Source: a virus (lineage: Duplodnaviria; Caudoviricetes). From it: a DNA stretch of 35,169 nt. The notes beneath the pieces are model-generated. The model was not told the origin of the DNA, made no database searches, and was given only the letters and a program-made list of their open reading frames with translations. The stretch is from the IMG/VR virus record IMGVR_UViG_3300017912_000299, positions 1-35,169 of that record; one strand, 5' to 3'. Shown piece after piece: positions 4,693 through 35,168 of this stretch; the first letter of the stretch is position 1, and the number at the start of each line of letters is the position of its first letter. A program made the position numbers and the translations under genes.

Positions 4693-4702
4693 TAATTAAC
4701 TA

Positions 4703-4731
4703 TTGTATAATAGTTGCCCCTGTGTTATAAT
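4703..4731 (+). promoter_or_regulatory. Sigma70-type promoter for the major capsid operon
   Basis: TTGTAT (4703-4708), a 17 nt spacer, then TATAAT (4726-4731) with an extended -10 TG at 4723-4724. Confidence 0.75.
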
Positions 4732-4737
4732 GTAGTT

Positions 4738-4952
4738 GTAATATGATTTGCAGGACACCACTATGCAGTGGTATACCCTGCCCCTTCCAGATAAATATAA
4801 CAAGGTATACCAGATCAAAGAGGACCACAAAGTTTCGTGATACCCTCAAGTAGTCTGCCACTAAGTTAGTCTTATCTGATCTAGCTACCTCTTCCTGTAA
4901 AGGACATAGGAGAGGTGTATCTAAAAGCCATTTCATATAGGAGAACAAAACA
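4738..4952 (+). promoter_or_regulatory. Long structured 5' leader of the major capsid gene
   Basis: Hairpins 4750-4781 and 4820-4847 share a GG-AC/ATAC-CC internal loop. A further stem ACCTCTTCCT/AGGAGAGGT lies at ~4887-4916. RBS AGGAG at 4939-4943. Confidence 0.6.
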
Positions 4953-6002
4953 ATGGCATTCGCAAAAGCATCGGGCTATACCAATCTTAACTCAGGTAAC
5001 TTCAGCCCAGTAATCTATAGCAAAAAGGTCCAAAAGGCCTTTAGGACAGCATCTGTTGTAGACGCAGTAACTAACACTGACTACTCAGGTGAAATCGCAA
5101 ACTTCGGTGACTCTGTTAAGATCATCAAAGAGCCAGATATCACAATCACAACATATGAGCGTGGTACTACTCTAGCAACTCAAGACCTCACAGACGCTGA
5201 CTTCACTATGGTCGTTAACCAAGCAAACTATTTCCAGTTCGCAATTGACGATATTGAAGAAGCACACAGCCACGTTTCTTTTGGTGACTTGGCTAGTGAT
5301 CGTGCAGGTTATAAATTGCGTGATACATTTGACTCAGAAGTACTACATCACATGGCAGGTTTTACTGCAGCAGGTGCAAGGCGTACTTCACTTGAAACAG
5401 GAAGCACTAAAGCAGACAGCAATGCCGATAATGACGAGTTGCTACCTGCTAACAAATTAGATATCACAGATTTTGGTGGTTCTGATCTTGGCGTTGAATC
5501 GGAAATTACATCTATTCCAATTGCTGCAGGTGGCGGTGCAGGTGGTATTACTTCACCACTAGCAATCCTAAACCGTATTGCACGACAAATGGATCAGGCG
5601 TCAGTAGACACTGACTCAAGATGGTGTGTGGTTGACCCTGTGTTTGCAGAAATATTAATGGATGAAGATTCAAAATTAATTAATTCTGACTTCGGTGGTG
5701 GAGACGAACTACGAAACGGACGTATGCCCGGACAACTTCGTGGGTTCACAATCTACAAATCCAATAACCTACCTTCACTAGGTACAGGTGCAGGAACTGC
5801 AGCATCTGCAGGTTCAGAAACTAACATGGGTTTCCTAGTGGCAGGACATTCATCTGCAGTAGCAACAGCGGAACAGATCGCTAAAACAGAGACTTTCCGT
5901 TCACCTACAACTTTCGCAGATATTGTTCGTGGAATGCAGTTATATGGACGCAAAATTCTACGTCCAGAGGCTCTATTTACAGCCGCTTACAACTTAGCGT
6001 AA
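4953..6002 (+). CDS. Major capsid protein (HK97 fold, P22 coat-like family)
   Basis: 349 aa with NFSPVIYSKKVQKAFR, TNTDYSGEIANFGDSVKI, FQFAIDDIE and FADIVRGMQLYGRKILRPEAL. Codon usage fits high expression and the RBS is strong. Confidence 0.95.
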   Translation: MAFAKASGYTNLNSGNFSPVIYSKKVQKAFRTASVVDAVTNTDYSGEIANFGDSVKIIKEPDITITTYERGTTLATQDLTDADFTMVVNQANYFQFAIDDIEEAHSHVSFGDLASDRAGYKLRDTFDSEVLHHMAGFTAAGARRTSLETGSTKADSNADNDELLPANKLDITDFGGSDLGVESEITSIPIAAGGGAGGITSPLAILNRIARQMDQASVDTDSRWCVVDPVFAEILMDEDSKLINSDFGGGDELRNGRMPGQLRGFTIYKSNNLPSLGTGAGTAASAGSETNMGFLVAGHSSAVATAEQIAKTETFRSPTTFADIVRGMQLYGRKILRPEALFTAAYNLA

Positions 6003-21336: not shown

Positions 21337-24325
21337 AATACGTTTCTCAGATAAAGTAGCTGAAGTTCAAGGACAACTTGCTGAAGGGGGGTTTATGGAT
21401 AAGCCCACTCTGGGCGATTACATGACTGTTGCCGCACAAAATCTTGCGACAGGGCTTCAGGCTGCAGAAAAAGAACGTATGATTAAAGAGAAAGAAGAAC
21501 GGGCAGAGGCGGCAGCTAAAGCAGAACGCATTCGTAAAGAACAACTAGAAGAAGAAAAACAAGTTAAAAAACTTAAAGCAGCTATTAATGCAGCCTTAGA
21601 TATTGAGCTTGGGAGTAAAGAGAATATAGATTGGCAATGGTCAAACATAGAAGGTGGCAGACCTTCTGTTGTCAGTAATATTTTTTCTGTATTAAATGCT
21701 AATGATGTTGATCCTTCTCAGGTATCTGGGTACATCAATCTGATGTATGATAGAGGGGCTTTTGATGCGGCTGCTATAAAAAGAGATATATCTCTTGATA
21801 CTCAGACTATAGATGATCAAACAGATTCAGCCCTTGGTACAACTACTACATCTTCTATAAAAATAGGTAGTTCCTATACTGATGATACTAATTATTTTGT
21901 TGAGTTTGGAAAAACTAAAGTTGATTTATTTGCCCCTGCTAATGTTGCTACAGAAAGCACTTGGCAGCAATCTATAGCAGATATCCAGAATGCTACATAT
22001 GGACAGCTTCGCAAAGATGCAGAAATTTCTGCTATTAAACAAAAAGCAAAAGATATGGGGTGGGTTACTGTAGGAGACAGAACTCTCAAAGAAGTAAAAG
22101 ACATGAAAACTTCTACTGAAATTGAGGATTGGGCAGCTACTCAAAATCTTAATGATGAAGATGCAACTACAGTAGAAGCTGTTATTGAAACTAAAAAAGA
22201 CATTGAAGATAAAAAACTTTGGTTTAATCAGCCCGTCAGTAAAATAATTGAATGGAACTATGACGGGGATAGTAAAAATAAAGGCGCAATACTAGATGCT
22301 CAAATAGGACTACAGTTAGCCCTTAGTGAGGATTTGAACCTTCTCCCTCAGAAGAGAGCTAGTGCTAAAGAAAAATATGAAAAGCTAATGACCGCTAAAT
22401 CCACTATAGCTCTCTTAAATGGTCAAGCTAAATTTGATGAAGTAAGTGACTTAATTCCTTTCATGGGCAAAGACGTAACTGAATTAACTAATTTAAGAGC
22501 AATGATAGTTCAGTTAGGTGCGCCTGATGATGTTCAACAAACGATGGGACTTATACTAAGTCAGGCTATAGAGCAACGAGATGCAGAAGAGCAAAAGCGT
22601 ATGTTGCTGCTTGAACCTAAAAAGATAGCTTATATGGATTTTGTTGAGTCTGAGGAATATAAAGAAGACTTAATTAAAGGTGTGTCTATAGGTGATCTAT
22701 CAGCCCGTTTTGAAAAACGGTGGTCACAGGCAACCAGTATTGCACAACAGCCTAAAGATTGGTTTGAAGAACCAGAAAACTTGCGTTCCTTAACTTTAGA
22801 TGAAGTTAATCTTCTAATAAATGCTCAGATAGTAACAGAAAATCATCCTGCTTATGATACTATCACCAAGATTAAAACTTCGCTAGAGGGTGCACAAACA
22901 GACGATGATATAGCTGACTTGTCTACTAAAATTAGTGAAGCCGCTAATAAAGGCCCTAAAGCTCTAGAACTTCTAGCTTTAGAAACAGGTGCAGCGTCTC
23001 TTCTAACTAACGATACCTTGGCTGATCAATATAGTAAGGCTATGGCTATAGCAAATGCATACACAGAGCCTGAAGAGATAGATGAATATCAGATGGTTCT
23101 ACGGGCAGCGATAGCTGAAGCAGAAGAAAATAATGTAGACTTCTCAACTATGAGTTCAGGAGATATTAGTAAGTTTTTTGGGGAAGTAAAACTAAACTAC
23201 GATGCCGCTAGAACAGCTACTAAAGATGAGAACTACGGCATAGAAGAGTTCCAATCTGAGCTAGTTAAATACTCATTAGCTCTAGCAAATAATCCAAATG
23301 ATAAAGCTGCTAAAGATTGGTTAAATAAACAGGCTCCTATTATAGAGAGTTCTCTTCTTAGAGTATCAGGCATGAATGATGAGGCTAAGATGTTAGCTAA
23401 ACTCAGAAATCGTGGCCTAGATGATACTGATGAAAATAGAAGACTTATTGCATCGGCTGATGATCTTAAAATTACTACTTCTTTCTCAGGCTTCCCAATG
23501 ATCGTTAATAAACTTACTAGTGACGCCACGATTATAGGGTCAGGGGATGATACTGCAAATATTCCTGCCACAATGGATAACCTTGATAATACTCTTACGG
23601 ATATGAAAAACAATCCTAATGAGTATAACTATATAGGTAAAGTCTCTGTAGCAGAAGATGGCGCATTAACTATTGATGTACGCAATGGTCAAACAATCAC
23701 CCTTACTGCAGATCAGATAAGAGAGAGTGCAGAGTTTGATAAAGAACTGGCTATGTCTCAGTCGGTTCAAGAAGGCATACCTATGTCACAAGGTCCGGGG
23801 TCTTATATTAGACAGGGACTAGCTGCAATATCAGATATAACCTTTGGACTTCCTCCAGAAAGCGATAGGGCCAAGACTACTGCAGCAATAGGCTTCTTAG
23901 AAAAACTGAAGATTAACACTATCCTTAAACTTTCTGCAGCGCAGGGAACTAGAGACAGTGTATGGCAGAAACAGGCTTTGAGTATTACTCTTCCAGAACG
24001 AGGGCTGCTTAAAGGCAATCAGTTAGCACTTCAAGACTTTGAAAATACTCTATCAGGGTTAATAGAAACAAAAAATATCTTAGATGATATAATGACAGAG
24101 GCTAAGACACCAGAAGGTGCTACTGATAAGTCTATAACTGCTAAGTCTGCCCGAACTCTAAAAGATATAAACTCTCTAATACCTGTATATCAAGAGGTGG
24201 TTAGATTGTTTAAAGAAGGTGGAGCTACGTCAGATAAATCTTCGGGGTCGGGGAAGAGTGGAAATATTCAAGACTTAAATCTACAAAAAGGTAGTTTTAC
24301 TACAGGTGAAGGTGAAAACAGATGA
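21329..24325 (+). CDS. Large internal virion (ejection) protein
   Basis: About 998 aa, helical and acidic. The start was moved from 21302 to the ATG at 21329 (MAKIRF), which overlaps the upstream stop region. Its position matches T7 gp15/P22 gp20-type genes. Confidence 0.6.
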   Translation: MAKIRFSDKVAEVQGQLAEGGFMDKPTLGDYMTVAAQNLATGLQAAEKERMIKEKEERAEAAAKAERIRKEQLEEEKQVKKLKAAINAALDIELGSKENIDWQWSNIEGGRPSVVSNIFSVLNANDVDPSQVSGYINLMYDRGAFDAAAIKRDISLDTQTIDDQTDSALGTTTTSSIKIGSSYTDDTNYFVEFGKTKVDLFAPANVATESTWQQSIADIQNATYGQLRKDAEISAIKQKAKDMGWVTVGDRTLKEVKDMKTSTEIEDWAATQNLNDEDATTVEAVIETKKDIEDKKLWFNQPVSKIIEWNYDGDSKNKGAILDAQIGLQLALSEDLNLLPQKRASAKEKYEKLMTAKSTIALLNGQAKFDEVSDLIPFMGKDVTELTNLRAMIVQLGAPDDVQQTMGLILSQAIEQRDAEEQKRMLLLEPKKIAYMDFVESEEYKEDLIKGVSIGDLSARFEKRWSQATSIAQQPKDWFEEPENLRSLTLDEVNLLINAQIVTENHPAYDTITKIKTSLEGAQTDDDIADLSTKISEAANKGPKALELLALETGAASLLTNDTLADQYSKAMAIANAYTEPEEIDEYQMVLRAAIAEAEENNVDFSTMSSGDISKFFGEVKLNYDAARTATKDENYGIEEFQSELVKYSLALANNPNDKAAKDWLNKQAPIIESSLLRVSGMNDEAKMLAKLRNRGLDDTDENRRLIASADDLKITTSFSGFPMIVNKLTSDATIIGSGDDTANIPATMDNLDNTLTDMKNNPNEYNYIGKVSVAEDGALTIDVRNGQTITLTADQIRESAEFDKELAMSQSVQEGIPMSQGPGSYIRQGLAAISDITFGLPPESDRAKTTAAIGFLEKLKINTILKLSAAQGTRDSVWQKQALSITLPERGLLKGNQLALQDFENTLSGLIETKNILDDIMTEAKTPEGATDKSITAKSARTLKDINSLIPVYQEVVRLFKEGGATSDKSSGSGKSGNIQDLNLQKGSFTTGEGENR

Positions 24326-27300
24326 GTTCTGTAAACTTAAACTTTTTAAATGATTTATCTTCTCAGTATGGGGCTACTGACACCTTAGATGAATTTATTA
24401 AGGCCGAAGGGCCAAATATAACCGTGGATGGAGAGTCCTATGATCTTAATATGATCCGTGGGCTTATGACAGAGGACGGGGAACGAAACTTCACAGACGA
24501 AGACATTATCACCTTTATGAATAAGGGGGTGTCTGTAGACTACAGCATTGATAGTGCAGGGGATGCTGCATTAGCAGGGGTAGGAAGCGGAAGCCTTGGT
24601 GTACTAGGCGCACCTGTAGATATAGTTAATTCTATTACCCGTGGGATAGAAGATGTTACTAGGGCAGGAGTTAACAAATTAGCTAGTATAAATGCTCCTG
24701 AAGGAGTAGATGATCCTAATTCCCCTAACTATGATCCAGACTTTTATTTAAGTAGAAATCCTGAAGATTTTATTTTCAGTAGCACTAAGCCTTTTGCAGG
24801 TAAAGAGAGCATTGCTGAAGGACTAGAGACTACATACGCTCTTGTGGGTTCTGACTTTGAATACAAGCTAGATAAGATGGAGATACCTGAAGAGTATCGC
24901 TATGCTTATGTTATGGCAGAGATAGCGGCTGAGAATGCTCCTATCGTATTTGGTCTTCCTGTAGTAGCTGCTACTAAGGCAGGTAGTGGTAAACCTGTTC
25001 ATGCTTTTTGGGACGAGATAATTAAGGACCCTAAGAAGTTTGTAATGACAGAGAGTGCCGCTACTTCAGGTGGTGCAGCATTTGTTGGAATAGCTGAACA
25101 ACAACAAGTAGAAAATCCCTACGCCAGAATGGGCATAGAATTTCTTGGTAACTTAGCAGGGGGAGCATCGGCAAACCCTAAAAGTATATTTGAAACAGGT
25201 GTCAAAGGCGCACTTAAACTTCCTATAGTAGGGGCAGTACTTAAAGGTAAGAGTAAGTCTGCAGCCCGTATTGCTGCCTTCCAAGAATTAAAGAGAAGTT
25301 TAAATTCTACTCATAAAAATCTACTAAAAAAATCAGAGGAATTAAGACAAGAAGCTGCAAACGCACAAACTGCTTCGGAAAGAGATGCTTTTCTTCAACA
25401 GGCAGATGCCGCTGAGAACGAAGCAGGGCTTTATGAATTAAGTTTTGTGTTTAATACTATGGAAAAGGGCTATCGGGATATTTACCGTTTAGCAGAAGGT
25501 CAAGATATTGATCCTATAGATAGTGAAGTGTTTGCAGGTAACTTTGCAAACAACCCTGCAATAGTAGAATTACAAAAATACTTTTCTAATCAAGACAGTG
25601 TATTTGACGCACAAGTTATACAGAATGCCCAAGAGTCTATAGCATATATGTTATCGGCTGCAGAGGCTATGGCTAGAGGTGGCAACCCTGAAGCTGCCCA
25701 GATTATGACTAACAACGCCTATCAACAGGCTGTTAATATGGTTATGATAGATGCCCAAGACAAAGCTCAAAAGCTATTGCAGGGGGTTAGAGGTAACGTA
25801 GATCAACAATCCGTAATAGATGCATCTATACAAGCTCAGAAACTTATATCTGAAGCTAGGCAGAGTTGGAGTGGCATGGAAGACTATCTGTGGCAGACTA
25901 TTCCAACAGACATAATGGTAGAGAATAATAAATTTATTGAAGAAATTAGAAGTATTTATTCTGGCCCAGATAGAGTTTTATTCAGTGAACAATCTGTAAC
26001 TGGATCAGGCGAACTAGATGCTGTTCTTAGTAGATTAGGAAATGCAGATACAATATCTCTTGGGGACCTAAAACTTATTAGATCACAGTTGTTGCAGTTA
26101 GCTAGAACTAGCAGTTCAGGGTTAAACCCAGACTTTAGAGCTTCTGGTATTTATAGTCGCCTAGCAAATTCTACACTCAAGGATATAACTGAAAGTAATA
26201 TTCCTGAAAATATTCTAGCAGAATTTAATCTAGCTAGAGCTTTTTCTAGTAGGCTACATGAAAGATTTGATACGGGCTTTAATGCGGAGTTACTTAATTT
26301 AACAGGTCAGGCAACTAGTGATTTAGCAATGACACCTGAAATGTCTCTTACCAGAGCATATGGTGGTGGTGGAATACAGGGTAAAGAAAATTTAGAGGAT
26401 ATGCAGGTTGCTGCTTCAGAAACTGATACAGTAGAAGCTGCTATGACAGCTAAAATGATGGATGATGCCGCTGTAGCTGCAGGGATGGAAAAAGGCAGTG
26501 GCGAAACTATAATAACTCCTGCACCGTCTTCTACGTCAGTAGTTCGTACCGAAGGTCCTATGCCTTATACCCCACCTAATCAGACAGCATATCCATTTAA
26601 GCCTGTTCCTGAAAACCGTATGACCATAGACGAAGATGGGAATGTAGTTCCAGAGCCTAATCAGGGACAGCCTAGATTTAGAGATAATGATCCTAGAACT
26701 AGAACTCGTAATGATATATTTCCACCAGAGGGATCAGAGACTGCAGACACACTTAACAATATGTTTGGGTTTAACAGAAGTAATTCTCCTGAAGTTGATC
26801 CACCAAAGGATTTGTCAGATGCAGAGATAAACTCTCAGGCAGATGAAATATATGGAGATGGTCCACCAGAGGAAGTTGTAGGTGGGGAAGTAGCAGTAGC
26901 AGATACACCTACTCCTTTTGGTCCTGCAATGTCAGAGGCTCAAGAAACATTTTTAAGAAATCTAGTATATACAAAGTTACTAGATAGTAAGACTGTTAAG
27001 ACACCAGAAGGGGATACTAAAACTCTTTTAACTCTTAGCCCCGAAAAAGTAAGACAGTGGAAACTTGATAATGAGGCACTACTCAGTCGCTTCCCAGACC
27101 TAGCTACAGACATTGATCTTGCTATAGATGCTAGAAGAGTAATGGATCGAATGGATTCAGAACTATCTGCAGTAGCGGAAGGTAATCTTTCTCAGAATAT
27201 AAATGATATATTTACTGGTAATGTAAATAGATTAGATAGACTGCAAGAATTAAAACAGGTTGCTTCTAGTGTAGCTAATCAAGGAGACAATGCTCCCAAG

Positions 27301-28071
27301 GCGGCTCTAAGAAATTCTATTATGGATTACATATTTAGAATATCGGAAAGACCTTCTGATCCCTCAATAGATTACTTAGAAAAGGGATCACCTAACTTTC
27401 AGGCTATAGCTAAAAATTTATTAACTCCTATCAATGATCAGGGGATGACTTTACTTGATGCATTGGCATACAAGAAACCAGACAATCCTAATGATTACGC
27501 TATCCTGCAGCCAGATGAGATTGCAGCCGTAGCTAGGTTCTTACAGGAAGGGATCAACATTGAGAACTCTTTACGTCCCAGAGCTACCCCAGAGGAAGTA
27601 ATTACGCCTACTGGTGATCTACAAACAAACCTTGCTAGGATTGTGGGTGCTAATATTGGTGCTACCTTTGGAGAAGGTGGGGCTTCATTACAGACTGCCC
27701 AGATTGTCTCAGGACAGTTCAAGAAATTAGTTAGTTCACTACCTCTAGCCAACCAAAAGAAGGCTATGCAAGACTTACTTAAAAGCCCTAGAATACTTGT
27801 TGGTATGTATAAGAGGGACCCTTCAGTTAGGCTTACTAGCTTTCAAGCATATAAAGAAAGTATCATTAGTCGATATAATGAAGCAGGGGTCAAAGGAGTT
27901 GCAGGTAAATTAGCTAAAGATGCTACTATGGGAACAGTTAATGTTATTGCTGATGGGCTTACTGATACGCCTGTAAGTGCTAGACTTGGTGCTACTACAG
28001 GAGAGAAAGACCTACCAGATGATGCTGTAGTCCAAACTGAAGAAATGCTATCTGAGGAAGAGGAAGAGTAA
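24322..28071 (+). CDS. Large internal virion (ejection) protein
   Basis: 1249 aa with an ATGA overlap and Gly/Ala-rich hydrophobic segments (LGVLGAPVDIVN, LARIVGANIGATFG). It is the last gene of the structural arm. Confidence 0.65.
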   Translation: MSSVNLNFLNDLSSQYGATDTLDEFIKAEGPNITVDGESYDLNMIRGLMTEDGERNFTDEDIITFMNKGVSVDYSIDSAGDAALAGVGSGSLGVLGAPVDIVNSITRGIEDVTRAGVNKLASINAPEGVDDPNSPNYDPDFYLSRNPEDFIFSSTKPFAGKESIAEGLETTYALVGSDFEYKLDKMEIPEEYRYAYVMAEIAAENAPIVFGLPVVAATKAGSGKPVHAFWDEIIKDPKKFVMTESAATSGGAAFVGIAEQQQVENPYARMGIEFLGNLAGGASANPKSIFETGVKGALKLPIVGAVLKGKSKSAARIAAFQELKRSLNSTHKNLLKKSEELRQEAANAQTASERDAFLQQADAAENEAGLYELSFVFNTMEKGYRDIYRLAEGQDIDPIDSEVFAGNFANNPAIVELQKYFSNQDSVFDAQVIQNAQESIAYMLSAAEAMARGGNPEAAQIMTNNAYQQAVNMVMIDAQDKAQKLLQGVRGNVDQQSVIDASIQAQKLISEARQSWSGMEDYLWQTIPTDIMVENNKFIEEIRSIYSGPDRVLFSEQSVTGSGELDAVLSRLGNADTISLGDLKLIRSQLLQLARTSSSGLNPDFRASGIYSRLANSTLKDITESNIPENILAEFNLARAFSSRLHERFDTGFNAELLNLTGQATSDLAMTPEMSLTRAYGGGGIQGKENLEDMQVAASETDTVEAAMTAKMMDDAAVAAGMEKGSGETIITPAPSSTSVVRTEGPMPYTPPNQTAYPFKPVPENRMTIDEDGNVVPEPNQGQPRFRDNDPRTRTRNDIFPPEGSETADTLNNMFGFNRSNSPEVDPPKDLSDAEINSQADEIYGDGPPEEVVGGEVAVADTPTPFGPAMSEAQETFLRNLVYTKLLDSKTVKTPEGDTKTLLTLSPEKVRQWKLDNEALLSRFPDLATDIDLAIDARRVMDRMDSELSAVAEGNLSQNINDIFTGNVNRLDRLQELKQVASSVANQGDNAPKAALRNSIMDYIFRISERPSDPSIDYLEKGSPNFQAIAKNLLTPINDQGMTLLDALAYKKPDNPNDYAILQPDEIAAVARFLQEGINIENSLRPRATPEEVITPTGDLQTNLARIVGANIGATFGEGGASLQTAQIVSGQFKKLVSSLPLANQKKAMQDLLKSPRILVGMYKRDPSVRLTSFQAYKESIISRYNEAGVKGVAGKLAKDATMGTVNVIADGLTDTPVSARLGATTGEKDLPDDAVVQTEEMLSEEEEE

Positions 28072-28111
28072 AAATAAACCCCCGTAAGTTTATGTGCCTA
28101 CGAGGGTTTAT
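28071..28111 (-). terminator. Intrinsic terminator of the minus-strand sRNA / replication arm
   Basis: Minus strand reads ATAAACCCTCGTAGG-cacataaa-CTTACGGGGGTTTAT-TTT. The G-U pairs only form on the minus strand. Confidence 0.8.
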
Positions 28112-28234
28112 CCATATCCATCGAATCGAGGAAACCAACCCCCGGAACTTATAGATTAGTTATAAAGCCCCCACACTGAAACGGAGAACAATGTGAGGGC
28201 TTCGACCAACTAAGAAGAGGTGACCAAACCTCAT
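28071..28234 (-). ncRNA. Predicted phage small RNA with anti-RBS loops
   Basis: It has its own promoter and terminator, four hairpins in two similar units and no usable ORF. One loop is antisense to the polymerase and capsid RBSs. Confidence 0.65.
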
Positions 28235-28240
28235 GCCTAC

Positions 28241-28269
28241 AATATATAGTAGACCGCCCCCACCGTCAA
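28241..28269 (-). promoter_or_regulatory. Sigma70-type promoter for the intergenic sRNA
   Basis: Minus strand TTGACG (28269-28264), a 17 nt spacer, then TATATT (28246-28241). Each hexamer matches consensus at 5 of 6 positions. Confidence 0.75.
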
Positions 28270-28291
28270 CCGATAGTGGGGGTTTTTCTTT
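28257..28291 (+). terminator. Intrinsic terminator of the structural arm
   Basis: CCCCCAC, a 12 nt loop, GTGGGGG, then TTTTTCTTT. Confidence 0.85.
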
Positions 28292-28297
28292 AAAAAC

Positions 28298-30292
28298 TTA
28301 GGTAATATCTACCATTTCACATACATCCCCAGAACACGCCATTGTTCTAGAACCTGCAGTGTTATCCTCTTGTTCATAGAGGTCTAGCTCATCCCAGTTA
28401 ATATCTTTAGGCATAGACGCTAGAAGATCATCATATTCTTTTTTAGAGATATTCTGGTATGGAGCCTGTTGATAGGTGTGTTCCTCAAAAGGTAAGAAGC
28501 TAACCCCAGACATTTCATCAAAATGTTTAAAGACAAAAGAACCCACCTCTAGCCACTCATCAGGTTTGACGTTAATTGTGACGCTAGGCTTATGTTCACA
28601 CCAGTTTCTCTGATAGATTAGCCAAGTCTCTAGCTGTTGAATAGCAGAGAAGTCTTTAGTGCATTTGGCTCCCTCTGGCGCTCTCATAGGAAAGCTAAAT
28701 ACCGTTGTGTGATCTGGCTTCATAAAGTCAGGCTCACTTGGTATGCCCTGATCTTTCATAAACTGAGTGAGAGGGTCTTTGTTATCTCCTCTAACTGTTC
28801 TGATATAGTAGGGCGAGTATCGTGGATGTAATCCACTGGCACTATCCACTAGCTGAGATACAGTCCCTGATGGTTTAACACAAGTTATAGCAGTACTAGC
28901 AGGTATCTCTAGTCTCTCTGCCCACTCTTTATTTGTTTTAACAGCTAACTGCCTAAGATGATTTAGAGTGTTAGCCAATGCTTCATTCTGAGTAGTCAGT
29001 AAAGGATTATCCATGATCCCAGTAAGGCTCACCCCAAGCAGACGCTCTTCCTCTGTATTATCTTTCCACGCTTTTCGTAAGTATGGGAAGTAAGTAAAGG
29101 TAGATTGAATAGTTCCTAAGATAGTAGCTAATCGGACCTTCTTCTCTATAGCTGCAATATCGTCTGTAGCTCTTACTACTACTTCACTAAGGTTACAAAA
29201 CTGCATTGGCCTCAAGCTAATCTCAGAACACGGGTTGCAGCCAAACTCTTGATTAGCGTCCCGTCTGCCACTCATTTCGGCAATACTTTTACAAGCCTCT
29301 CTGTTAAAGATACCACGCTCACCACTTCCGCTTTCTACTAGTGCAGTCCACTCTCTGATAAACGACAATGCATCAGGAGTTTCAGTATAGACTACGCTGT
29401 TGTTAGCCAAGGCTCTGTGTGGAGCATTCTCCCACCACTTTCCTGACTTAGCATGGCGCATTCTATCGTCTGACAAATTAGATAGAGATATCATAGCTGA
29501 ACGTCTAACACCGCCCATCACAATGACTTCGCCTATCTTACACATGATATCGTGACATTCGATAGAAGACAACTTACGTCCTTGAGCATTCTTAAATGTG
29601 GCAATGCTAAAGTTAAACAAATCTACTAGTGGGGCAGGGCCACTGGCTCTACCACCAAACGTCTTTAACCTAGAACCTGCAGGTCTTACTTTCGATACAT
29701 CCCACTGAGGTATTTCACCTGCCCATAACAACGCTAAAATTTGCCTAAATCCTTTGGCCCATCCACGTTTGCTGTCTTGTATAACTACTGTAGTATCTGA
29801 TGCAAATAGGTTCTCAGGCACTTCAGGAAGTTTATGTACATATTGGCGTTCCACACTAAAGCCTACGCCTGTCCCGTTAAGAAGTATATACATAGCTTCA
29901 TCAAACGCTTTAGGATCATCTACTGGTAGGTAGGAACAGTTATACATACAGGTATTATCTCTTTCAGCCGCAGGTCCTGCAGTCATAAGTGACCGCATAG
30001 AAGGCATTATACTAAGGCCAAGGATAGCATCCCGTATTTCATCCACATAGGAGTCACTACCTATTAGAGGCCGAACTACATGGTCCATATACCTCTCTAC
30101 AGTTTCACTCCAAGTTTCCCTTCGCTTCTCATCGTCTAGCCACCTTGCATAGCGAGAAGTGGCTATAAAGGTTTGGTAATCAGTTGGTAAGTAATTGTTC
30201 ATCTTCTTCTCATTAGGTAAGGGGCCTAAACCGAAATACTCTCTTTGAGCATTGGTGTAGGCCATTGCTTCGATATCGTCCCGTGATATCAT
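28298..30292 (-). CDS. nrdJ: Class II (adenosylcobalamin-dependent) ribonucleotide reductase
   Basis: SRYARW..RRETW, MPSMR, YNCSY, GTGVGFSVE, GGVRRSAMI, catalytic NPCSEI, TCVKPSGTVSQL and C-terminal CSGDVC. No small-subunit gene is adjacent. The true start may be the ATG at 30202 (MNNYLPTDYQ). Confidence 0.93.
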   Translation of the reverse strand: MISRDDIEAMAYTNAQREYFGLGPLPNEKKMNNYLPTDYQTFIATSRYARWLDDEKRRETWSETVERYMDHVVRPLIGSDSYVDEIRDAILGLSIMPSMRSLMTAGPAAERDNTCMYNCSYLPVDDPKAFDEAMYILLNGTGVGFSVERQYVHKLPEVPENLFASDTTVVIQDSKRGWAKGFRQILALLWAGEIPQWDVSKVRPAGSRLKTFGGRASGPAPLVDLFNFSIATFKNAQGRKLSSIECHDIMCKIGEVIVMGGVRRSAMISLSNLSDDRMRHAKSGKWWENAPHRALANNSVVYTETPDALSFIREWTALVESGSGERGIFNREACKSIAEMSGRRDANQEFGCNPCSEISLRPMQFCNLSEVVVRATDDIAAIEKKVRLATILGTIQSTFTYFPYLRKAWKDNTEEERLLGVSLTGIMDNPLLTTQNEALANTLNHLRQLAVKTNKEWAERLEIPASTAITCVKPSGTVSQLVDSASGLHPRYSPYYIRTVRGDNKDPLTQFMKDQGIPSEPDFMKPDHTTVFSFPMRAPEGAKCTKDFSAIQQLETWLIYQRNWCEHKPSVTINVKPDEWLEVGSFVFKHFDEMSGVSFLPFEEHTYQQAPYQNISKKEYDDLLASMPKDINWDELDLYEQEDNTAGSRTMACSGDVCEMVDIT

Positions 30293-32983: not shown

Positions 32984-35130
32984 GCATATTCTTTCTGATC
33001 TAGCCAATTATTTCCCCCTGAGATTTCTATCTCAAGAGGCACTACCATATTATAGTTCCACCTTTGTTGTGCTTCCTTGTCTACTCCTGTCATAGCCCAA
33101 GTCAAAGCCTCTTTAACAGTATCTAATTCATCAGGATAAACATCTACGCATATACTATCGTGTACTGTCAGGATCAACTTTGATTTTAGATTAAGTTCTC
33201 TAAACTTACGCCTAGCTCTGATACAGGCTAATTGAACAATGTCGGCTGCAAATCCCTGTACGGGATAGTTTAGTATCTGAGTTGCATTACTAACTCTATC
33301 TTTCTTGACCCGTACCACAGAAGGCCAGTAGTATTGTCTACCACTTGGAGTTTCCACAATACCATTTCTGAGCGCACCGTCCATAAGCCTCTGATGCCAA
33401 GAGTATATACCTTGGTACACCTCATAAAATTGGCTGAAGTAGGCCCTTATATGCTCTGCCTCTCCTGCGCCAGTGCCTCCAAATAGAGGTAGGAAGGTGT
33501 AGGCTTTTGCTTTCTGACGTTCCTCTTTAGTTACCTCTTCAGGTGGCTTTCTGCCAATGATACTGGCAGTCTGTCTGTGAATGTCTTTACCTTTCAGTAT
33601 ATCCGACAGCCCCTGACTGTCTCTACTGAGTTCCACACAGACTCGAAATTCAAGACCTGAGTAATCCGCTTCTAAAAATGTGCCGCCTTCAAAACGCGAT
33701 ATAAAGGCCTTACGCACGGGGAAGCCTCTTTTGGGCTGATTTTGTAAATTTGGACTCATACCCCCACCAGAGGACAGCCTACCCGTTGCAGCGATGCATT
33801 GGTTGAAGTTGGCATGAAGTAGGCCATTTTCTCTAACCCCACGCTTAATTCCTGCAACAAAACTATTTAAATAAGTAGAAACCGCATTCAGTCTGGTAAG
33901 CATAGTTAGAAACTGTACGGCTTTTACATTATCCTTACGCTCTGCCTGTTTAATTAAACGCTTGATGCTATTCTTATCAGTCTTGAAGCCAAGGATAGAC
34001 GCATCATTAGGGTTCTGAGGAGACAGCTTTAGCCCTGCTACCTCTCCCGTAGGCATATAGATAGCACCACTGGCCTTACAAGTCTTACAGTTAGTTCTGT
34101 TCTTGTAGGGTTCGCCTTGTACTCTATACTTCTTACCTAACTTAGTTTTGGTCTTCACTTTATACTTCTGAATAGACCCTACACCTTGGCAATTAGGACA
34201 CTGAACAGCTTTAGTTCTGTAGACCACCTGAGTTGTAGCCCTGACTGCACTAGTAAATTGCTTCGGAGTCATTCTAGGAGCCATCAATGCTTTACCTGCT
34301 TCGTTAGTTCCTATGTTGAATGTCTGAATGTGGGCTTCTCTGTTCTTTACTTCTCTACTGAAGATAACTTTAGTCATGTCAGCCCCACTATCTAAATTGA
34401 TAGGAGTATCTCCCATAACCTCAGTAACTATATCATTAAGATTTTTAGTTAGCGTCTGTCTTTCAGTTTCAAACTCTTTCTCCACTTGCTCAAGAACATC
34501 CATATCTATCTGAGTGCCGTTGAGTTCTATGTCGCACAAGAACATGAGCATATCATTCATCTGTTTAATTACACTCAGGAGTGATCTGTTATGCTCTTTC
34601 TCAAAGCTCTGCATCTGAGATAGATATATCTCTCCACAAGTCTTTACGTCAGCTATGCCATACTCAGCTACATCGTTTAGGTCTATCTCAGAGAAACACA
34701 TTCCAGATTTAAACTTCTCGTCAACTAAGTCAGATTTTTTGTAACTGTCTGTCTTTCTGCGTATGGCAGTTTCTTTCAGACTGATAGGAAGTCTTCTAGC
34801 TTTACTCAATACAAACTCTGCAATCATGGTGCAGTATATCTTATCAGGTATTAAAAAGCCCATTTCCAATAGCCATTCTACGTCAAACTTGGCATTGTGG
34901 ATTACTAGTAAGTCAGCTTCTTTTAGATATTCCTGTAGCTGATCACCACTGTCGGGTTCTATACATTGGTTGTGGAAGAACACTTCTATCTCCACATGGT
35001 CTACAGTAGTTTCTCCAAGCCATCCATACTGGGCCATCACAGCTTTATTCAAAGGATTTTTAGGAGAGTTATCAATACGCCCGTCCTTTCGGACCACCGT
35101 AGTTTCTAAATCAAGTACAAGTATTTTCAA
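32980..35130 (-). CDS. polA: Family A DNA polymerase with 3'-5' exonuclease and a DnaJ-like zinc-finger insert
   Basis: Exo motifs LDLET, HNAKFD and YGIAD; TGRLSS..NLQN; motif A ADYSGLEFR; motif B RQKAKAYTF; motif C VHDS; insert CPNCQGVG..CKTCKASG. TTG start with a GGAG RBS. Confidence 0.95.
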   Translation of the reverse strand: MKILVLDLETTVVRKDGRIDNSPKNPLNKAVMAQYGWLGETTVDHVEIEVFFHNQCIEPDSGDQLQEYLKEADLLVIHNAKFDVEWLLEMGFLIPDKIYCTMIAEFVLSKARRLPISLKETAIRRKTDSYKKSDLVDEKFKSGMCFSEIDLNDVAEYGIADVKTCGEIYLSQMQSFEKEHNRSLLSVIKQMNDMLMFLCDIELNGTQIDMDVLEQVEKEFETERQTLTKNLNDIVTEVMGDTPINLDSGADMTKVIFSREVKNREAHIQTFNIGTNEAGKALMAPRMTPKQFTSAVRATTQVVYRTKAVQCPNCQGVGSIQKYKVKTKTKLGKKYRVQGEPYKNRTNCKTCKASGAIYMPTGEVAGLKLSPQNPNDASILGFKTDKNSIKRLIKQAERKDNVKAVQFLTMLTRLNAVSTYLNSFVAGIKRGVRENGLLHANFNQCIAATGRLSSGGGMSPNLQNQPKRGFPVRKAFISRFEGGTFLEADYSGLEFRVCVELSRDSQGLSDILKGKDIHRQTASIIGRKPPEEVTKEERQKAKAYTFLPLFGGTGAGEAEHIRAYFSQFYEVYQGIYSWHQRLMDGALRNGIVETPSGRQYYWPSVVRVKKDRVSNATQILNYPVQGFAADIVQLACIRARRKFRELNLKSKLILTVHDSICVDVYPDELDTVKEALTWAMTGVDKEAQQRWNYNMVVPLEIEISGGNNWLDQKEYA

Positions 35131-35168
35131 AAGTCTGGTTCTCCGTTTTCATCAAAGTTAGGTCTTCT
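35127..35168 (-). CDS. 3' end of the upstream gene (truncated by the window)
   Basis: Minus frame reads RRPNFDENGEPDF*. Its TGA overlaps the polymerase TTG start (TTGA). Confidence 0.5.
   Translation of the reverse strand, partial: RRPNFDENGEPDF

Follow-up and report, generated by a model that had tools for sequence, protein, structure and literature searches.

A conserved promoter-hairpin-terminator unit at the arm junction in the CRP-3/CRP-738 subgroup of HMO-2011-type roseophages and its predicted antisense RNA against early and replication genes

The window (the whole stretch of DNA analysed here, 35,169 nucleotides) is a linear virus record with an estimated completeness of 65%. Identity to CRP-738, CRP-235, CRP-212 and CRP-3 is 70-77% for the capsid protein and 53-65% for PolA, while all others reach at most 58% and 38%, respectively. 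With these phages as the closest capsid and PolA matches and with the same gene order, the window phage is, judged by sequence, an HMO-2011-type roseophage of the CRP-3/CRP-738 subgroup. In the parts of the two reports consulted, the CRP-3 subgroup is numbered II in 2019 and III in 2022 (PMC6918029, PMC9038755), which taken together would place CRP-738, CRP-235 and CRP-212 in subgroup III, and the host integration site of CRP-3 is given as a tRNA-Met gene (PMC6918029). In the window, the structural arm (plus strand) and the replication arm (minus strand) meet with convergent genes at an ORF-free gap; the early genes, integrase, primase and helicase lie past the right end. No Rfam family matched the gap at its gathering score, the sub-threshold matches being terminator-like only, and blastn of the gap against phage isolates returned the ribonucleotide reductase (RNR) gene as the only match. 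The features of the gap, its flanks and the distant polA leader are:

24322..28071, plus strand: gene for a 1249-aa protein without a PHROG family, last of the structural arm (flank)
28068..28161, minus strand: polymorphic 94-nt insertion that L476 lacks and a close strain skips, containing a second hairpin (UUGGUU loop) together with a strong terminator
28163..28201, minus strand: terminator hairpin of the putative small RNA (sRNA), with a non-conserved loop at 28179-28188
28206..28214, minus strand: seed b, the single-stranded linker CUUAGUUGG, whose complement (C)CAACUAA(G) lies ahead of the target Shine-Dalgarno sequence (SD) in close relatives
28217..28232, minus strand: hairpin 1, GAGG-U-UUGGUC-A-CCUC, with a covarying stem and a loop (seed a) predicted to be unpaired
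28241..28246, minus strand: -10 box TATATT after a 17-nt spacer, with a predicted start near 28234, recognised by pattern and from relatives
28257..28291, plus strand: late-arm terminator hairpin and U-tract, which fold as a stem and U-run on the late strand in all elements tested except G016 (11/12)
28264..28269, minus strand: -35 box TTGACG, of which TTGAC is invariant in 14/14 aligned elements while the flanking stem letters vary
28298..30292, minus strand: RNR gene (phrog_367, E 1e-182), last of the replication arm (flank)
35128..35163, minus strand: polA leader, which doubles as the 3' coding end of the preceding ORF, with an 11-nt match (35138-35148) to the terminator loop and weak wobble complementarity to seeds a and b

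A preliminary description of the gap had proposed a minus-strand promoter that fires into a non-coding stretch ending in a U-tailed hairpin. All three elements were found: TTGACG-17-TATATT lies at 28269-28241, there is no ORF between the 1249-aa gene and RNR, and the U-tailed hairpin occupies 28113-28072. Since the promoter pattern alone is not above chance (four sites found against 12.3 expected), support for the promoter comes from its conservation in relatives and not from the pattern match; in a pattern-selected set of relatives the -10 box reads TATAAT, TATACT, TAAAAT or TAAATT at a spacing of 16-18 nt. The assignment of the fold to the minus strand was borne out as well, with -68.9 kcal/mol (z -6.1) on that strand versus -46.9 kcal/mol (z -3.6) on the plus strand. 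The late-arm terminator overlaps the -35 box of the sRNA promoter, and the 3' UTR of a late mRNA with its end at this point would be complementary to the sRNA over its full length.

Across 11 sequences, pairing in the stem of hairpin 1 amounts to 95.5%, four of the six pairs are changed on both sides, and the score was reached by 0/500 shuffles; these counts refer to type-A sequences only, since the automatic alignment misplaces the type-B hairpin, and they come from related sequences, several of which were found with a search pattern that fixed two inner pairs of this stem. Four G-U cells in the stem favour the minus strand. Seed a (UUGGUC) is complementary to GACCAA before the start codons of the putative targets, and seed b varies by lineage together with those targets. 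Both seeds are predicted to be unpaired in a 70-nt form, whereas in a long read-through form the insert pairs with seed b. A promoter and an intrinsic terminator of its own, a non-coding sequence and a conserved seed, all properties of a trans-encoded sRNA, can be read from the DNA.

Among relatives the conserved parts are TTGAC-17-TAnnnT, the covarying hairpin with its UUGGUC loop, the single-stranded tract of seed b and the terminator, together about 70 nt. The element stands at the end of the replication arm in 4/4 subgroup isolates, chosen by protein similarity, each with an A-run and a hairpin holding TTGAC, a -10 box 17-18 nt further on, the UUGGUC hairpin, a short linker and the terminator. 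Sixteen loci selected by polA run well past RNR, and 13 of them carry the canonical form and three that of a variant lineage; two further such loci end within the promoter hairpin. The element is absent from the arm junction in five more distant genomes: CRP-1, CRP-2, CRP-345 and HMO-2011 have a terminator alone there, and in HTVC033P the junction stretches inspected hold neither terminator nor element. Loci anchored on RNR belonged mostly to other phage groups, with at least one useful locus among the matches listed, nearly all matches of a first pattern scan for the element were at chance level, and chance matches also dominated a scan of bacterial genomes. L447 (about 5100-5300, G014), L453 (G021) and L527 hold similar promoter-hairpin-terminator units or GACCAAATG leaders and have no subgroup marker-gene matches; the system may extend to other phage groups. 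Right behind the RNR stop codon, L247 (17054-17115) and L009 (5391-5470) have tandem 25-nt repeats (TTACG..ATGGCGTA.A.ATCATA).

These comparisons also bear on the length of the RNA. Of the two lengths proposed earlier, about 165 nt and alternatively about 70 nt, it is the shorter that agrees with the conserved unit, and 28068-28161 is the 94-nt insertion. The insertion is a sister cassette, with a homologue that has its own TTGACT-17-TATTAT promoter in G012, L286 and L327. This second cassette (window 28068-28161; L467, about 10085-9965; L286; L327) has the loop UUGGUU or UUGGUA and the linker GAUGGAUAUGG, and in G012-type genomes small ORFs separate it from the main element, which follows about 585 nt downstream. 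No target for the inserted cassette was found among the leaders compared, and it could be aimed at another phage group. The close relatives L205, L473 (G018) and L468 (G017) carry an extra hairpin of 25-35 nt between seeds a and b, which the window does not have. In G001, G002, G003, G004 and G023 the terminator loop is UUGGUU, complementary to repeated CCAACCAA tracts of their own target leaders, and possibly a third seed.

The preliminary description had placed the pairing sequence in the loop of a second hairpin, the terminator hairpin of the unit described here, and had named polA and the major capsid gene as targets. The loop does exist, but only 10 nt of it, UUCUCCGUUU, are free, and the neighbouring UUG/CAG are stem pairs. 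The 11-nt match to 35138-35148 (polA) and the 9-nt match to the capsid-gene SD region (4940-4948, plus strand) are both present as reported and, because UUG/CAG is paired in the stem, shorten to 10 nt and 6 nt in the free loop. The polA site described as an SD region encodes the final codons of the preceding ORF (RPNFDENGEPDF*), and at this place GAGAACGGGGAGCC is read in relatives with 93-96% polA identity. Matches of at least 11 nt arose in 17/3000 shuffles and the combination of 11 plus 9 nt in 4/3000; with the anti-SD core retained the figures were 53/3000 and 6/3000. The double match is unusual, on a figure before correction for the several loops inspected, and was fair to flag.

It was not reproduced in any relative tested. 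The co-variation of this loop with the ribosome-binding sites, proposed as a test, failed in 15/15 polA and 12/12 capsid relatives, where the exact matches are 3-5 nt long. In L477, which is nearly identical across the element, the loop core CTCCG is replaced by GGACA with hairpin 1, the linker and the terminator stem unchanged, and the hairpin bearing the UUCUCCGUUU loop is a terminator in all relatives. That the terminator loop nevertheless silences polA and the capsid gene in the window strain would be favoured by the rarity of the two matches (both in only 4-6/3000 shuffles) and by the UUGGUU terminator loops of G001-G004, which suggest that a terminator loop may be recruited as a seed. 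We consider this explanation very improbable, as the matches are not conserved, the loop core is replaced in a near-identical element, three of the nine capsid-pairing bases lie in the stem and the polA site is constrained by coding.

We rejected the capsid-gene SD region as a target, its match not being conserved and its interaction score being near the window median. The joint silencing of replication and morphogenesis put forward earlier was not supported, with the capsid leader at -7.9 kcal/mol, near the window median of -6.1. The best score in the window (-15.1) belongs to a spurious antisense ORF start in the capsid leader. This leader is a 260-nt non-coding stretch (window 4693-4952) with promoter-like TATAAT boxes, and GCCATTTCA directly before the capsid-gene SD is common to relatives. 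For polA, the best duplex uses the conserved seeds and wobble pairs, and not the UUCUCCGUUU loop; it scores -14.5 in the window, -11.8 in L202, -10.5 in CRP-738 and -2.4 to -5.6 in six others. Since the duplex falls to that level in six of the eight relatives, polA may be a weak, lineage-limited secondary target near the window lineage, as far as the modelled duplexes indicate.

In contrast to the terminator loop, the loop of the 5' hairpin and the linker behind it pass the co-variation test strongly, with early genes, primase and helicase as the counterparts. Complete genomes have the reverse complement of this loop and linker repeatedly ahead of start codons. GACCAA lies within 16 nt upstream of ATG at 26/590 ORFs of ten carriers versus 0/328 in five non-carriers (first 50 kb of each); the genomes are related, and the Fisher p of 1e-5 for this contrast overstates independence. 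GACCAA is the top-ranked hexamer in the comparison of carriers with non-carriers, and the reverse orientation gave 0/590, a control confined to ATG starts because TTG start codons confound the looser version (17/727). The looser count of GACCAA leaders was 40/~726 versus 2/350, excluding a self-hit in CRP-235 in which the sRNA is read as an ORF. The target-pattern scan was evaluated at three multi-site loci, two of which are subgroup relatives.

Seed b follows the same rule. Where starts were picked by the a site only, a b match of at least 7 nt was found at 29 of 42, compared with 13 of 630 other starts, and the own-genome pairing of b was the best of 720 permutations of six lineages (one self-hit removed), with the window lineage weakly separated from the G003 lineage (6.2 versus 5.6). 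For example, CRP-235 has the linker AAGUUUAGU and leaders of the form AAACTT...AAGGAAATGACCAAATG, CRP-3 the linker AAGUUAGAU and the leader ATCTAACTTGGAGACTGACCAATG, and G003 the linker CGUUGGUUG and the leader CAACCAACGAA...GACCAAT. Seed a itself is exchanged in G007, where the loop is UGUGGUC; GACCACA stands at 3/38 starts including helicase, versus 3/1079 starts in 16 other records, and one target leader is complementary at 17/18 nt. From these sequences, this lineage has changed seed a and its targets together.

The contrast between carriers and non-carriers bears on a simpler explanation, in which the gap is only a bidirectional terminator region and U/G-rich spacers happen to look, in reverse, like A/C-rich, unstructured early leaders. 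Terminators are usual at arm junctions, non-carriers have one there, and A/C-rich leaders are common in phages. The absence of GACCAA leaders in non-carriers (0/328), the lineage-specific b matches, the seed swap and an invariant loop in a covarying stem all speak against it, so that we regard it as highly improbable and largely refuted already by the first three of these. Another explanation is that a protein, a translational regulator, binds the b...GACCAA leaders and that the copy between the arms is a decoy in the 3' UTR of the late mRNA. The late strand would indeed carry GUGACCAAAC in a hairpin loop ahead of a conserved terminator, and a sense-strand motif is common to the targets. Against this, the stem has G-U pairs that point to the minus strand, the promoter dedicated to that strand is conserved, and base-for-base change of both seeds in six or seven lineages is hard to explain by a protein; we consider the protein very unlikely.

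The reading we prefer is that of a pairing RNA. No GACCAA leader lies inside the window, and the window's targets are borrowed from relatives at 93-96% polA identity (L202 ends before the sRNA locus). In these relatives the window seeds find fitting leaders at primase (CAACTAAGGAC[C/T]ATGACCAATG), helicase, a DUF932 homologue and small leftward genes. Predicted targets number 2-8 per genome and are dispersed; most of the others have no family. Primase and helicase are predicted targets in some lineages only, and helicase sites often have no b match (3-5 nt). GACCAA also stands at the RNR start in several type-B genomes (G001 28386, G004 375, G008, G023), where RNR is a possible further target by its leader. 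In CRP-3, a match to Rfam Hammerhead_II (L423 8620-8691, minus strand; 37.2 bits at a cut-off of 37) sits between the DUF932 gene and gp56, both predicted sRNA targets.

Interaction energies, from a simplified duplex-plus-opening estimate, were -7.7 to -29.6 kcal/mol for own targets in six genomes, mostly below -12, compared with 0 to -8.9 for capsid leaders. Scored against the L202 leaders, the window RNA ranked primase first of 27 starts (-16.4). The same helicase leader scored -7.9 or -13.7 depending on the stretch used, and L205-type RNAs with the inserted hairpin reached only -6.6 to -10.8 in this simplified model.

We propose, with good confidence, that 28234-28163 is a conserved promoter-hairpin-terminator unit; its product is likely a 70-nt antisense RNA, which would repress, at the level of translation, a set of early and replication genes of the phage itself. 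The earlier interpretation stands in so far as it saw a promoter-driven, trans-acting minus-strand antisense RNA against several phage ribosome-binding regions, but its seed and its targets were wrong. Host RNA polymerase would transcribe the unit into a 70-nt primary transcript. The loop of seed a would contact GACCAA between SD and AUG first; its UUGG fits the YUNR U-turn motif. Hairpin 1 would then open and the linker (seed b) pair upstream of the SD, and the duplex would spread over about 25 nt, cover the SD and block 30S binding. For the window, the targets read from relatives would be primase, helicase, the DUF932 gene and other leftward early genes. With less certainty, late-arm transcription, being fully antisense, could neutralise the sRNA.

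The RNA may hold the lytic programme down, for lysogeny or for an immunity whose specificity groups are set by seed b, or it may shut early genes off; this is less certain than the mechanism itself. Given the mechanism, we put a role in lysogeny or immunity slightly above an even chance and a role in lytic timing slightly below it. In favour of the former, 10/10 near-complete carriers have an integrase and CRP-3 is a proven lysogen; no repressor family was seen among the 33 ORFs scanned of the 60 annotated in CRP-3. In favour of timing or exclusion, both the RNA and its targets are retained in L205 and L209, where no integrase match was seen between the early genes and primase, and 4/5 non-carriers have an integrase. 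Lysogeny is thus not tied to the element. Tentatively, and as a rather doubtful extension, the phages, as temperate marine podoviruses, could rely on the 70-nt RNA as a protein-free master repressor that acts on translation of a dispersed early and replication regulon. Divergence of seed b, and now and then of seed a, alongside all target leaders would then create immunity groups, and antisense late transcription would reset the switch.

HMO-2011-type phages are an abundant marine group with a proven lysogen (CRP-3). The portions of their literature consulted propose no repressor and give no explanation for how lytic genes are kept quiet, and the main text of PMC9038755 contains none of the words 'noncoding', 'terminator' and 'repressor'. 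No published description of the RNA was found in the openly accessible main texts on HMO-2011-type phages and small RNAs. The unit is a concrete candidate regulator with named predicted targets in four cultured phages and, by its sequence pattern, probably represents a family of phage antisense sRNAs that is new and whose regulon of several genes co-evolves with it. Its natural seed swaps can serve directly as controls of specificity, and for roseobacters they might yield orthogonal RNA switches.

C4 RNA pairs through two elements, a and b, and the roseophage unit resembles it in its two short exposed seeds and in bipartite sites at the ribosome-binding region, here recognised by sequence. The preliminary description had named P1 C4 as an analogue, which is right in kind: like the roseophage unit, the P1/P7 c4 RNA (RF01695) is a short phage RNA whose exposed sequences pair around the ribosome-binding site, and it gives sequence-specific heteroimmunity, as stated in the part of PMC12197685 consulted. 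Rfam names the c4-a1b1 (RF03163) sites 'a1, b1 targets', and the UUGGUC/GACCAA word pair also occurs in some C4 loci. The UUGGUC loop word heads C4 target leaders (c4-a1b1, isrK; motifs listed in the consulted part of PMC2864571) in unrelated prophages, by descent or convergence. In the prophage C4 loci L287, L300, L340, L349, L363 and L379, the target hairpin has the same GTTTGGTCAC loop, and in the alignments listed the C4 RNA has UUGACCAA. One could imagine from this shared loop that the roseophage unit is a decoy that sponges C4-type immunity RNAs of co-resident prophages or satellites, and the scan for promoter plus GTTTGGTCAC did return C4 loci whose C4 RNA bears UUGACCAA. We rate this as the least probable of the explanations considered: the phage's own leaders account for both seeds, and a host shared by the phage and the C4 loci with UUGACCAA, like a C4 counterpart of seed b, would be hypothetical.

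The differences from C4 are several. The roseophage unit has no Rfam match in the window, CRP-738 or CRP-3, whereas true C4 loci score 59-77 bits, and it folds as hairpin, linker and terminator, in contrast to the multi-stem C4. It is free-standing and has a promoter and a terminator of its own; no same-strand ORF comes after it, and kilobases separate it from the complementary sites at start codons, while C4 is excised from the very leader under its control. This promoter and terminator speak for a primary transcript, unlike C4, which is processed from a longer precursor. Two to eight dispersed targets contrast with the single icd-ant operon of C4, and the polarity is reversed, with UUGGUC carried by the regulator here and by the target in C4 loci. 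Membership in C4 RNA (RF01695) was rejected on the absence of a model match, the other fold, the position outside the leader of a controlled operon and the many targets; membership in the c4-a1b1 and isrK leaders (RF03163, RF01394) was rejected with no model match and the loop word alone in common.

The P4 CI RNA is similar in that it silences replication genes of the phage itself, in the P4 lysogen as opposed to by prediction here. According to the consulted part of PMC4825925, CI RNA is processed from a leader and pairs with seqA and seqC of the same transcript, leading to termination, whereas the roseophage sites at the start codons of separate genes point to a translational block. IsrK of Gifsy-1 and SeqA-like leaders (RF01394) share the order of promoter, UUGGUC-type loop hairpin and terminator, and the short form of IsrK acts in trans (PMC4825925, same part); IsrK stands at the head of an operon and acts as activator of its own long transcript, whereas the roseophage unit has neither a downstream gene on its strand nor an isrK match. 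VpdS of VP882 and PreS of lambda are free-standing, trans-acting phage sRNAs that pair with mRNAs (PMC12197685, in the part consulted). These two depend on Hfq and act largely on host functions, whereas the roseophage RNA is predicted to act on genes of the phage itself, over long stretches of complementarity that co-evolve. While C4 and CI act in cis on a single operon, the antisense RNA of the roseophages would co-evolve with as many as eight dispersed leaders simultaneously.
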